NCBI GenBank assembly: GCA_033391075.1
Contig: JAWPMV010000004.1
Coordinates: forward strand, 182,642 to 246,641
Source: Bacteroidia bacterium
GTDB taxonomy: Bacteria; Bacteroidota; Bacteroidia; J057
Direction of reading: 5' to 3'
Length of the DNA: 64,000 bases
Under the pieces are notes generated by a model. That model saw only the letters and a list, made by a program, of their open reading frames with translations. It was not told the origin of the DNA and searched no databases. A program made the position numbers and the translations under genes. Shown here piece after piece: positions 61,016-64,000 of this stretch (within the stretch, counting starts at the first letter, position 1; each line of letters starts with the position of its first letter).

Positions 61016-61459
61016 TCAGTTTTTACTTTTTTCTAAATGCAGTTTCATGACTTCTGCTGCGCCCACTTTATTTTGATTGCTAATATGTTCAATGATGCTA
61101 TCATGTTCATAAATCGCTTCAAAGAAACTATTGAGATCCTGTTTCTTTCTGCTATTGAACAAATCAAATAGGTCAGGGAAAATCTTAAGATATAGGGACT
61201 TAAGTACACTATTTTTACTTGCAGCCACCACTTCCAAATGAAAGAGCAAATCCTCCTCAAGGGCTTCTGCCTGATCAAGTCTTTGCTCCCGGAAATCATC
61301 TTGTGCAGCCTGAATACTCCGTAGATTTTCTGAGCTTCTTCTTTCCGCCGCCATTTGTACTGCGGTAATTTCCAAAATTTCTCGGGCTTCGATGAGATGA
61401 TCAGCGTGCGTATTTGGATTCATAAATTCTCCGTTTCTTTTACAGATTCTATAAGACAA
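61016..61459 (-). CDS. FCD-domain protein (C-terminal ligand-binding domain of GntR/FadR regulators) lacking the wHTH
   Basis: Has EAREILEITAVQMAAERRSSENLRSIQ...LLFHLEVVAASKNSVL...H..I..I. Only 77 nt separate it from the upstream gene, leaving no room for a DNA-binding domain. Confidence 0.6.
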   Translation of the reverse strand: MSYRICKRNGEFMNPNTHADHLIEAREILEITAVQMAAERRSSENLRSIQAAQDDFREQRLDQAEALEEDLLFHLEVVAASKNSVLKSLYLKIFPDLFDLFNSRKKQDLNSFFEAIYEHDSIIEHISNQNKVGAAEVMKLHLEKSKN

Positions 61460-61536: not shown

Positions 61537-62628
61537 TCAAGTAGGGGGATAACAAAGCAGGATCGTTGAATCTATTTTGGAATTAAATTCTACTCCATCC
61601 ATAGCCGCTGAAAAGAATATTTCGTCTCCCTGCTCATATTCATATTCCTGGCCATCATACTGAATCCATCCTTTGCCTGAGTAAATCACAGCTACATAAA
61701 AACTGCCATTTCCTTTATGAACATAGCGGCCTGACAAATCGAGCTTGCTGACTCCAAAACAATCTGTATGGGTTTCATTAAATATCGTACTGAGTTGGTA
61801 GCCTACTCCTTTCTCGAGCACTTGAGGGATGATCTTCCACCGTTTAAGGGCTTCTTCATACGAACATGGATCATAATGGAAGCAATCCAACATCTTCTCC
61901 TCACCTACTCCCTGATGGATCAGGTCATCGCTGATTACCAAGCCTGCAGGTGTAATCTTTTCCACACGCATAGTATAGTCTGTTGGCTCCTGCACCTCCA
62001 ATAAAAAACAAGCACTTCCTATGGCATGAGGCACTCCTCCATATATCATGAAAGCATCACCTGACTCCACCGGAAATCGATGCAGACATTTGAGCATGCC
62101 TTCAATGTCCTGATTGAGAAAGAGTTCTCTCCAGCTCTCCTTAGTTACTCCTTCTTTAAAGCCCATGTAAACGGCACTCTTTTCTCCCTCAATTTCACGC
62201 CCTCCCAGTACATACCAGGATTCTGTTTTTCCAAACTGAGAACCCAGCATTTCCCGGGCATACTTCTTATCAGGATGTACTTGAATTGTAAGTCGCTCTT
62301 TTGAATCCAGGATTTTGATCAAGACTCCGGTAGTACCATACTTTTCTGCTAACTGCTTCCCTAAAAAGAGTTCCCGCTCGGAATCAATCAGTTCTTTTAG
62401 AGAAATTTCACCTTCCGGACTCCGCAAAATGCTGAGACCTTCATTTGCAGGGCGGCCTTTTCCCCGGGCTGAAATGGTAGACATGATCCATTCTTCCGGA
62501 AAACTCCCATCCTCCTCACTTGCCTCTTTTTTCCAACGATCAATTAAAGCTCCTCCTTCATAGGTTCGCCACACTCTATTGTTTTTTTGCTTGAGGGGAA
62601 TATGAGCTAATGATTTTAAATCTCTCAT
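61537..62628 (-). CDS. type I phosphomannose-isomerase-like cupin
   Basis: Has LTIQVHPDKKYA, GKTESWYVLG and YGGVPHAIGSACFLLEVQEPTD (PMI type I zinc-site pattern). Confidence 0.7.
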   Translation of the reverse strand: MRDLKSLAHIPLKQKNNRVWRTYEGGALIDRWKKEASEEDGSFPEEWIMSTISARGKGRPANEGLSILRSPEGEISLKELIDSERELFLGKQLAEKYGTTGVLIKILDSKERLTIQVHPDKKYAREMLGSQFGKTESWYVLGGREIEGEKSAVYMGFKEGVTKESWRELFLNQDIEGMLKCLHRFPVESGDAFMIYGGVPHAIGSACFLLEVQEPTDYTMRVEKITPAGLVISDDLIHQGVGEEKMLDCFHYDPCSYEEALKRWKIIPQVLEKGVGYQLSTIFNETHTDCFGVSKLDLSGRYVHKGNGSFYVAVIYSGKGWIQYDGQEYEYEQGDEIFFSAAMDGVEFNSKIDSTILLCYPPT

Positions 62629-63888
62629 TTATTGGATGATTGACTCCCAAACCCCTTTAATCCCAATGATCGAAGTGAAAATGGAAAAAAGAAGAATGGC
62701 CAGGAGAATAGTATTTGTTGTAAAGGAATTCTGGTATTCGCCCAATAGGTCCTTTCTGTTTCCCAGATAAAAAATCGCCCCTACGGTTAAGGGTAGTATG
62801 ACGGCATTAAACGCCTGAGAGACGATCATGACAAATATGGGGGGCGCATTAAAAACAGGTACAACCAAACCCAGTAGGGAAATACCCAAGACCATCCATC
62901 GGTATTTGGGCAGGGTCATTTGTCGCTCTGTTTGATTGTAATCACATAGCAACCAGGGCAACATTAATACATTTGGAAATTGAGAGGATACGCCAGCTGC
63001 TATGATGCCAAATGCAAATATCGAAACAGCCATTTTGCCAGCCAGAGGTTCCAGCAATTCCAGCATTTGAGAGACATTTGTCAGTTCCAATCCATTGATA
63101 TGCAAAGTTCCAGCTGAGGCTGCCATAATGGAGGCACTGATTACAAACATCAGGCTTACTGAAAAGATGGCATCATTGCGTTGTTTTTTCTGATCCTTAA
63201 GTTCCCAGCCCGCTTCTTTTACCAGGGTAGTTCGAATGATGAAAAGTCCTGAAAAAACAGTGGTTCCGACCATGGATGCGATTACCAGAAAAGGGCCTTT
63301 TGCCTGGTCCTGGGAGACTTCCGGAATATTGGGAATCAAGCCCTTCAATATTTCTATCGGGGGTGGCATCAGGATAAAGAAATTGAGCAAAAAACAGGCA
63401 GACATAATCGCCACGATGACTGCCAGGGAGCGCTCGAAAAACTGTGTTTTTCCATTCCAAAAAATGAAATACACGATGGCGGAAAAAAATGCTGCAAAAT
63501 AGACAGGTGCTATCCCTCCTTCAATAATTGAGCGGGACCAAATGTGGCTTATGTCTGCAACTATCCCCATCACTCCCATCACACTACCCATTACCCCTGC
63601 CGTAAGTGCCACAATAAAAAATATCCCAAGTCCAGGATGTATATGTTTTCTAAAAGCCTGAAGAGCTGTTTCGCCAGTGATCAGGGTATACCTACTGTAC
63701 AAATTGATCATGAAGTAGGTCGTCAGACAGGATGCAACAATCGTCCAAAGCAAGGACATGCCATAACTGGCTCCGGCTTTGGCCATTGCTGTCACACTTC
63801 CTGTCCCAATGTTGAATCCCAAAAGGAAAATACCAGGTAGAAACAGTAAAAGTCCTTGAAGAAACTTACGCTTTATTGTTGAAATCAA
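62629..63888 (-). CDS. Nramp(SLC11)-fold transporter with non-canonical substrate-site residues
   Basis: Alignable by eye to MntH (AGASYGMSLLW vs AGASFGYQLLW; 11 TM layout). However, TM1 DPGN is GTGS and TM6 MPH is FSG. Its stop codon abuts the ATG of the PMI-like gene. Confidence 0.8.
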   Translation of the reverse strand: MISTIKRKFLQGLLLFLPGIFLLGFNIGTGSVTAMAKAGASYGMSLLWTIVASCLTTYFMINLYSRYTLITGETALQAFRKHIHPGLGIFFIVALTAGVMGSVMGVMGIVADISHIWSRSIIEGGIAPVYFAAFFSAIVYFIFWNGKTQFFERSLAVIVAIMSACFLLNFFILMPPPIEILKGLIPNIPEVSQDQAKGPFLVIASMVGTTVFSGLFIIRTTLVKEAGWELKDQKKQRNDAIFSVSLMFVISASIMAASAGTLHINGLELTNVSQMLELLEPLAGKMAVSIFAFGIIAAGVSSQFPNVLMLPWLLCDYNQTERQMTLPKYRWMVLGISLLGLVVPVFNAPPIFVMIVSQAFNAVILPLTVGAIFYLGNRKDLLGEYQNSFTTNTILLAILLFSIFTSIIGIKGVWESIIQ

Positions 63889-64000
63889 TGTATGCAGATA
63901 TAGATATACGAGCTTAAACAGCCTAAAAACGGATACATTTACAGCCGATTTTTAGGCTTGAGTTATTAGAGATCTTCTGATAAAAAGAGCGATATCATTG

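Follow-up and report, generated by a model that had tools for sequence, protein, structure and literature searches.

In transporters of the Nramp/SLC11 family, an aspartate and an asparagine of the first transmembrane helix (TM1) and a methionine of TM6 coordinate the transition metal, and a histidine of TM6 takes part in proton coupling. In this study we analysed a member of this family in which all of these residues are replaced. The gene lies on the minus strand of a 64,000-nucleotide stretch of DNA (the window) from a Bacteroidia bacterium (GenBank assembly GCA_033391075.1, contig JAWPMV010000004.1, positions 182,642 to 246,641), and its product is referred to below as the carrier. Our analysis suggests that the carrier probably moves an organic solute rather than a metal, and a sugar acid is tentatively put forward as that solute. 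The gene and the codons discussed are listed here.

62629-63888, minus strand: Nramp-related (PF01566) carrier gene, 419 amino acids, TTG start, member of an aspartate-less 'GTGS' clade; its TAA stop codon is at 62629-62631
63796-63807, minus strand: codons of G28-T29-G30-S31, opposite canonical D-P-G-N in the alignments and in the unwound stretch of TM1 in the model
63247-63267, minus strand: codons of G208-T-T-V-F-S-G214, opposite G-A-T-V-M-P-H in the alignments; TM6a and the unwound stretch
63232-63234, minus strand: codon of Arg219 in TM6b, arginine in 29 of 29 GTGS rows
62941-62943, minus strand: codon of Asp316 at the cytoplasmic end of TM8, aspartate in 29 of 29 GTGS rows and glycine in 8 of 8 canonical rows

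Canonical Nramp/MntH proteins (DraNramp, PDB 8e60/6d91; Bacteroides fragilis Nramp, 10ky) share with the carrier the Pfam family, the 11-helix LeuT fold and the unwound TM1 and TM6. Unlike the carrier, they have D-P-G-N in place of G-T-G-S in TM1, A..MPH in place of T..FSG in TM6 and histidine in place of arginine in TM6b, and they keep the acidic D131 and E134 of TM3. None of the canonical SLC11 features (D-P-G-N in TM1, A-x-x-M-P-H in TM6 and the proton network) was found in the carrier. EleNRMT (PDB 7qia), a uniporter of hydrated Mg2+, is the second-best PDB sequence match (E-value 1.8e-12, and 3.4e-64 with a profile). NRMT and the carrier share the G-T-T motif of TM6, and both are without the TM3/TM9 proton network (PMC8806188). 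The TM1 aspartate is kept in NRMT (DxxG), whereas the carrier has glycine at that position and serine at the fourth; the GxxS motif of the carrier is not that of NRMT, and the TM6 threonine is present.

The third described system, YcsG/PxpT/MntG ('G-motif 3'), is like the carrier in having no TM1 aspartate and in being encoded within a catabolic operon that a GntR-type regulator controls. Genetics ties YcsG/PxpT to the uptake or use of an organic carboxylate, 5-oxoproline (PMC13274462), and the substrate is disputed between Mn2+ (PMC10448178) and 5-oxoproline (PMC13274462). The carrier does not appear to belong to this group. It is 17% identical to the integrative model 9a52_A with no close kinship, no pxpABC or oxoprolinase gene is adjacent to it, and the relation between the two is drawn from Foldseek matches and from an oxoprolinase-linked gene of Haloferax. 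The clade of that gene, with a GPGT motif, is a branch separate from GTGS and keeps the TM6b histidine. A January 2026 preprint describes the 'G-motif' Nramp-related groups, which have glycine in place of the TM1 aspartate and branch outside the canonical clades A, B and C, as 'entirely uncharacterized' except for the YcsG/MntG group (PMC12873925); the carrier, with its TM1 glycine, may belong to one of these groups. As for the job proposed here, it is the one done by ExuT/KdgT-type importers of the major facilitator superfamily (MFS), by GntP, by TRAP (DctPQM) and by SSS importers, in which importer, isomerase, reductase and dehydratase lead to 2-keto-3-deoxygluconate (KDG). The folds of these importers are unrelated to that of the carrier or alike merely at superfamily level, and the carrier is a member of none of their families.

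The Nramp fold that the original prediction had assigned to this gene product was borne out. The carrier matched the Pfam Nramp profile PF01566 with 188 bits (cut-off 29.8), its residues 32-388 spanning positions 1-356 of the 357 in the profile; canonical Nramps of the same phylum scored 440-473 bits. It scored 71.9 bits against the NCBIfam model NF037982 'Nramp family divalent metal transporter' (equivalog cut-off 50) and fell far under the cut-offs of the MntH subfamily models. Because the carrier passes the former cut-off but not the latter, its relatives bear public names of metal or manganese transporters. An AlphaFold2 model from a 49-sequence alignment (pLDDT 92.8, pTM 0.91) has helix breaks at residues 27-28 and 211-212, corresponding to the unwound TM1 and TM6 of the LeuT fold. 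The best Foldseek matches of this model were BfraNramp, DraNramp and EleNRMT (TM-score 0.75-0.83, 18-21% identity); among the matches listed, the top 28 were all Nramp, NRMT, NRAT or YcsG entries, and the generic APC carriers KimA, AdiC and LAT stood much lower in the ranking than the Nramps. Overall, the carrier is most likely a LeuT-fold secondary carrier of Nramp descent that would not bind a bare metal ion. A pseudogene was considered and rejected, given an undisrupted open reading frame (ORF), a model of high confidence and 73-81% conservation of the protein across phyla.

Replacement of every canonical metal-ligand position had also been predicted, and pairwise, profile and multiple alignments all gave one register in agreement with this. 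Four alignments were compared: phmmer against PDB chains, a MAFFT L-INS-i alignment that included eight DPGN Nramps of the canonical type from the phylum of the source genome, a summary alignment, and the 49-sequence profile against DraNramp. In the phmmer alignment with B. fragilis Nramp 10ky (E-value 1.7e-14), IGTGSV falls on IDPGNW and GTTVFSG on GAVVMPH. In the profile alignment, D56, P57, G58 and N59 in TM1 of DraNramp correspond to G28, T29, G30 and S31 of the carrier, and A227, M230, P231, H232 and H237 in TM6 correspond to T209, F212, S213, G214 and R219. No rigorous alignment brought aspartate, asparagine or methionine back to the binding site, and the predicted codon positions were exact (GTGS at 63796-63807, FSG at 63247-63255). 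An alignment artefact was rejected as an explanation, the four independent alignments being concordant. The clade alignment showed that both acidic residues of TM3 are gone, D131 being replaced by valine or leucine and E134 by glycine or a gap. Of the TM9 pair R352/R353, all that is common in the GTGS rows is an arginine (R330) close to the R353 column, which 24 of the 29 rows have. The carrier keeps the conserved TM10 glutamine and the TM7 Asp239.

A total of 1685 relatives of the carrier were found by HMMER among 1.84 billion representatives. Full-length relatives group by their TM1 motif (GTGS, GPGT, GPGD and canonical DPGN). In a maximum-likelihood tree rooted on the canonical DPGN rows, the aspartate-less rows separate from the canonical ones at SH-aLRT 100, and the I-G-T-G-S group is monophyletic (SH-aLRT 99) and nested among the aspartate-less GPGT and GPGD groups. 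Among 29 members of the GTGS clade, G28 and G30 are invariant (29/29 each), and T29 and S31 occur in 27/29 each. In TM6, T209 and T210 are conserved; A/S/F occur at position 212, A/S at position 213 and G/A/V/P at position 214, and the variation of these three pocket positions between subclades fits a pocket suited to different organic ligands. Position 219, always arginine in the clade, is histidine in all eight canonical rows (DraNramp H237) and in 20 of the 24 GPGT rows. Residues conserved at 85-100% in the GTGS clade and differing elsewhere are G24, G28, T29, S31, T33, M35, C54, T74, T209, R219, S301, P305, P311, D316 and F401. One fused form (protein P0139) has 852 amino acids, with a C-terminal extension of about 440 amino acids that has no Pfam match and shows no second domain that could be recognised.

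A scan of species-representative genomes gave 80 loci, in which ORFs were called, neighbours were clustered and cluster representatives were annotated with Pfam. Counts were made over the 77 loci that hold the carrier; 16 loci are short contigs. Orthologues 73-81% identical to the carrier occur in Bacteroidota, Gammaproteobacteria, Alphaproteobacteria, Planctomycetota and Verrucomicrobiota, their hosts being Saprospiraceae, Flavobacteriaceae (Zobellia, Maribacter, Flavivirga and others), Cyclobacteriaceae, Alteromonadaceae and further Gammaproteobacteria, Alphaproteobacteria, Pirellulaceae and Puniceicoccaceae. The recurrent neighbours are listed below, where PMI-like stands for a phosphomannose isomerase-like protein and SDR for a short-chain dehydrogenase/reductase.

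PMI-like: within 10 kb in 30 of 77 loci; directly adjacent on the same strand in 25
UxuA: within 10 kb in 23 of 77 loci; directly adjacent on the same strand in 13
SDR: within 10 kb in 28 of 77 loci; directly adjacent on the same strand in 3
MR_MLE (ManD-like): within 10 kb in 6 of 77 loci; directly adjacent on the same strand in 1
UxuB-like (mannitol dehydrogenase family): within 10 kb in 4 of 77 loci; directly adjacent on the same strand in 1
PL6, PL7, PL17 or KdgF: within 10 kb in 18 of 77 loci
Sulfatase or GH92: within 10 kb in 11 of 77 loci

A gene for one of these isomerases, reductases or dehydratases (PMI-like, UxuA, SDR, UxuB-like or MR_MLE) is the direct neighbour in 42 of 77 loci, and a uronate or alginate gene lies at most 10 kb from the carrier in 57. 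The fullest arrangement is illustrated by locus L111, with the order PL6-PL17-KdgF-MFS-SDR-KdgK-Eda-PMIlike-SDR-carrier-UxuA. Several Flavobacteriaceae have the carrier-PMI pair by itself amid housekeeping genes. Genes of TRAP, SSF and MFS transporters are found alongside the carrier in these loci as well, and no oxoprolinase gene was found in the surveyed carrier loci. Identity of the carrier is about 75% whether compared within a phylum or across phyla (range 72-81%; L076-L155), and for its PMI-like neighbour a comparison of Bacteroidota with Proteobacteria gives as little as 33%. The carrier may be very strongly constrained, may have been transferred horizontally on its own, or both; the two genes would then differ in their history or in the constraint on them.

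The original prediction held that metal transport is unlikely and suggested a small organic, perhaps sugar-like, substrate. The loss of the ligands, the PMI-like pair in 25 loci and the adjacent UxuA in 13 more argue for this claim, and from the sequences we judge an organic solute to be the probable substrate. With PMI-like, SDR or UxuB and UxuA genes as its company, often within operons for alginate lyases, a sugar acid is indicated in preference to neutral mannose or fructose. That the carrier is a sugar-acid importer feeding the KDG route is the reading we prefer, with a probability that we would place close to, and somewhat short of, an even chance. The likeliest substrates would be saturated D-mannuronate, or D-mannonate or another hexuronate from alginate-type polysaccharides; mannuronate in particular, taken by itself, is a rather doubtful choice.

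D-mannuronate is anionic at C6 like mannose-6-phosphate, and its isomerisation would give D-fructuronate. In the proposed scheme, the carrier would import the acid, and the co-translated PMI-like zinc-cupin isomerase would turn a manno-configured aldo-uronate into D-fructuronate, replacing UxaC. An SDR or UxuB would reduce D-fructuronate to D-mannonate, UxuA or ManD would dehydrate this to KDG, and KdgK and Eda would finish the route. The mannuronate reading accounts for all four genes and would explain their presence in alginate operons. In the carrier itself, the unwound G-T-G-S of TM1 and the threonine pair of TM6 could offer backbone amides and hydroxyls to the carboxylate and the sugar hydroxyls, as the G-S/A-G motifs of APC amino-acid carriers do. 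In this binding mode, small residues at the former Met/Pro/His positions would enlarge the pocket. The Arg219/Asp316 pair in the cytoplasmic half (TM6b and the end of TM8) could act as an inner gate, or as a site of charge or coupling. The set of enzymes (PMI-like, then SDR or UxuB, then UxuA or ManD) parallels the UxaC-UxuB-UxuA route, reviewed in PMC6353982, by which hexuronates become KDG. Counted in favour of an organic acid are also the genetic tie of YcsG/PxpT to 5-oxoproline (PMC13274462), the lyase genes flanking the carrier gene, the paralogue in an alginate operon and the UxuA and UxaC genes of the source genome, and three settings of more distant relatives described below, namely a CoA-transferase operon of Escherichia coli, a polysaccharide utilization locus (PUL) with GH88, GH2, GH20 and NagB-like genes, and an overlap with oxoprolinase genes in Haloferax.

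Several observations weigh against a sugar-acid importer. An MFS carrier is co-resident in carrier-bearing alginate operons (6 loci), so a second importer there needs a separate substrate, and lyases release saturated mannuronate only at chain ends. Neutral mannose suits the GH92/sulfatase contexts (11 loci) and the stand-alone carrier-PMI pairs. The PMI-like protein retains the zinc-site motifs of true mannose-6-phosphate isomerases, and to our knowledge it has no known activity on uronates. UxuA, PMI and related enzymes require metals, and the aspartate-less relative YcsG/MntG has been reported as a Mn2+ importer (PMC10448178).

A wider form of the proposal, which we regard as improbable, is that GTGS carriers and their neighbours constitute an undescribed route for saturated uronates, in which enzymes of sugar-6-phosphate families were recruited to the 6-carboxylate analogues and an Nramp-derived protein became the dedicated importer. 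The PMI-like protein would then be a D-mannuronate to D-fructuronate isomerase bypassing UxaC, and the NagB-like and amidohydrolase genes near paralogues would act on amino-uronates. The G-T-G-S backbone would hold the carboxylate, with Arg219/Asp316 in place of the proton network. If true, PF01566 would be a mixed family of metal and organic-anion carriers.

Retention of cation import is quite unlikely in our estimate. The carrier would in that case supply Mn2+, Mg2+, Ca2+ or Zn2+ as cofactor to co-induced sugar-acid enzymes, the ion being bound hydrated or through hydroxyl or carbonyl ligands. Full membership of PF01566 and the NF037982 score above its cut-off are consistent with this, and it is general knowledge that UxuA is Mn/Fe-dependent, that PMI is Zn-dependent and that PL6 lyases use Ca2+. 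The gene is labelled 'Nramp, metal-ion transporter' in Alteromonas alginolytic clusters by Koch et al. (PMC6431674), and the report of Mn2+ import by MntG cited above concerns the aspartate-less YcsG of Bacillus subtilis. However, the acidic and soft ligands are all gone from the site in the alignments, the new invariant residue in the translocation half is a cationic arginine, and the subclade variation at positions 212-214 is expected for differing organic substrates. The gene sits in catabolic operons and PULs beside a GntR-type regulator, unlike mntH genes, which are typically free-standing and metal-regulated. Furthermore, the characterised metal-carrying branches of SLC11 all keep the TM1 aspartate, as DxxN-AxxM, as DxxN-AxxT (NRAT) or as DxxG-TxxA/T (NRMT) (PMC8806188).

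Import of neutral D-mannose or a related hexose, with the adjacent gene encoding an ordinary mannose-6-phosphate isomerase that acts after a kinase encoded elsewhere, is unlikely, though several observations favour it: the carrier-PMI pair is the commonest module (25 of 77 loci), it often stands alone amid housekeeping genes, it is also found with GH92 alpha-mannosidases and sulfatases, and the best PDB match of the PMI-like protein is a B. subtilis-type mannose-6-phosphate isomerase. No kinase was seen to accompany the pair in the surveyed loci, and the PMI-like protein scores under the manA equivalog cut-off. UxuA, ManD and UxuB or SDR, which are enzymes of acids, occur as alternative or additional direct neighbours, and other members of the clade and its sister clade lie in carboxylate pathways. 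Least probable of the three is import of the unsaturated monouronate 4-deoxy-5-hexosulose uronate (DEH/DHU), the product of alginate lyases or GH88. The 18 loci with PL6, PL7, PL17 or KdgF, a paralogue of the source genome in a DEH-pathway operon and a 45%-identical subclade in a PUL with GH88 speak for it. But DEH catabolism needs just a reductase, KdgK and Eda, which leaves the coupling to PMI-like and UxuA genes unexplained, and these operons already hold an MFS carrier of the kind to which DEH is usually assigned.

The existence of aspartate-less Nramp-related groups is already published, as is an Nramp gene drawn in Alteromonas alginolytic clusters (PMC6431674), the one mention in connection with alginate that our literature search turned up, where it is labelled a metal-ion transporter. 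In the literature we found no proposal or test of sugar-acid transport by the GTGS clade, and nothing on Nramp with mannonate dehydratase, on MntH with alginate and mannonate, on Nramp with the E. coli CoA-transferase operon, or on fitness data. New in this study would be the substrate class for the family and the systematic misannotation; the mechanism we infer is that of an ordinary secondary carrier. Thousands of genes are called 'Nramp family divalent metal transporter' or 'manganese transport protein', including those of marine polysaccharide degraders of five phyla and those in some 10% of complete E. coli genomes. If sugar acids are carried, the metal-homeostasis inferences from those annotations would be wrong, and a missing inner-membrane player would be gained for alginate and uronate use in the ocean. 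The SLC11 field would likewise gain a natural rebuild of a metal site into an organic-anion site, bearing on the YcsG question. E. coli members of the GTGS clade make E. coli a tractable host for its study.

Four PF01566 genes were found in the 9.5-Mb source genome, at C1:6691119-6692156, C3:103737-104813, C3:202855-203919 and C5:245366-246436. All four are without the TM1 aspartate (three GTGS and one GPGT), and a canonical DPGN Nramp was not among the genes that the family search recovered from this genome. The two further GTGS paralogues are 40-41% identical to the carrier. One lies in an alginate operon with the order PL7-PL17-KdgF-MFS-SDR-SDR-KdgK-Eda-carrier-MR_MLE, and the other belongs to an amino-sugar locus, where an amidohydrolase gene and a NagB-like gene flank it and a TonB-dependent receptor is nearby. 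UxuA, UxaC and a gene of the mannitol dehydrogenase family are present elsewhere in the genome.

The neighbourhood of the carrier gene itself contains the following features, of which the regulator and the RraA-like gene lie outside the window.

61537-62628, minus strand: ORF of the PMI-like cupin aldose-ketose isomerase, 363 amino acids, Pfam MPI_cupin_dom and PMI_typeI_cat
61016-61459, minus strand: FCD-domain-only ORF, 147 amino acids, no winged helix-turn-helix (wHTH), Pfam FCD 70.5 bits, 77 nucleotides after the PMI-like ORF
63920-63958, no strand: 10-bp inverted repeat, candidate operator or terminator, in the 311-nucleotide gap from the GntR/FCD gene to the carrier
L004:6842-7543, minus strand: full-length GntR/FCD regulator just upstream of the carrier, beyond the window end
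L004:7728-8444, minus strand: RraA-like gene, between the GntR regulator and divergent alginate-lyase genes

The TAA stop codon of the carrier directly abuts the ATG of the PMI-like ORF, as had been noted from the sequence. The PMI-like protein scores 81 bits against TIGR00218 (manA equivalog; cut-off 116), and its best PDB match is the isomerase 1qwr (E-value 6e-17), in whose alignment the QVHPD, GKTE-W and PHA motifs line up. The FCD ORF does follow the PMI-like ORF as predicted, but a conserved transporter-PMI-FCD triad was not recovered, GntR-FCD genes lying within 10 kb in 8 of 77 loci. Residues 103-225 of the upstream GntR/FCD protein, its C-terminal half, are 36% identical to this ORF, which has the look of a ligand domain duplicated without its HTH and not of the operon regulator. 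Divergent from the GntR and RraA-like genes are genes for a PL7 alginate lyase, a xylose-isomerase-like TIM protein, a PL6 lyase and a GSDH-cytochrome c protein. A scan for sigma-70 promoter and terminator consensus did not flag the 10-bp inverted repeat.

More distant members of the GTGS clade and its sister clade occur in other settings. A strongly conserved Bacteroidota locus (family f32, L043-L059) contains, in order, a histidine kinase, a TonB receptor, a protein with a type IX secretion system (T9SS) tail, an 848-amino-acid protein and a GTGS carrier, and continues with GH2, in some cases GATase1-like and SSF genes, a xylose-isomerase-like TIM protein, GH20, NagB-like, PhyH and GH88 genes. 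It looks like a locus for a polysaccharide of amino sugars and uronates. In Haloferax volcanii pHV4 (541791-543008; L187), the stop of a GPGT-clade gene overlaps the start of hydantoinase/oxoprolinase A and B genes. This oxoprolinase system is not homologous to PxpABC and is a second one linked to an aspartate-less Nramp relative. Of 5426 complete E. coli genomes, 547 (about 10%) have a GTGS member 47% identical to the carrier, for example at NZ_AP018784.2 4626375-4627676. Its operon, which is under a LacI-type regulator, has a CoA-transferase/enoyl-CoA hydratase pair on one side of it and an FAD oxidoreductase on the other, and its PGAP label is Nramp divalent metal transporter. In one E. coli locus (L186; CP054241.1 795262-820430) the carrier gene is frameshifted. 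The CP054241.1 record is an 834-kb 'plasmid' with dnaB, alr, tyrB and dusA, and it looks like a misfiled chromosome segment.

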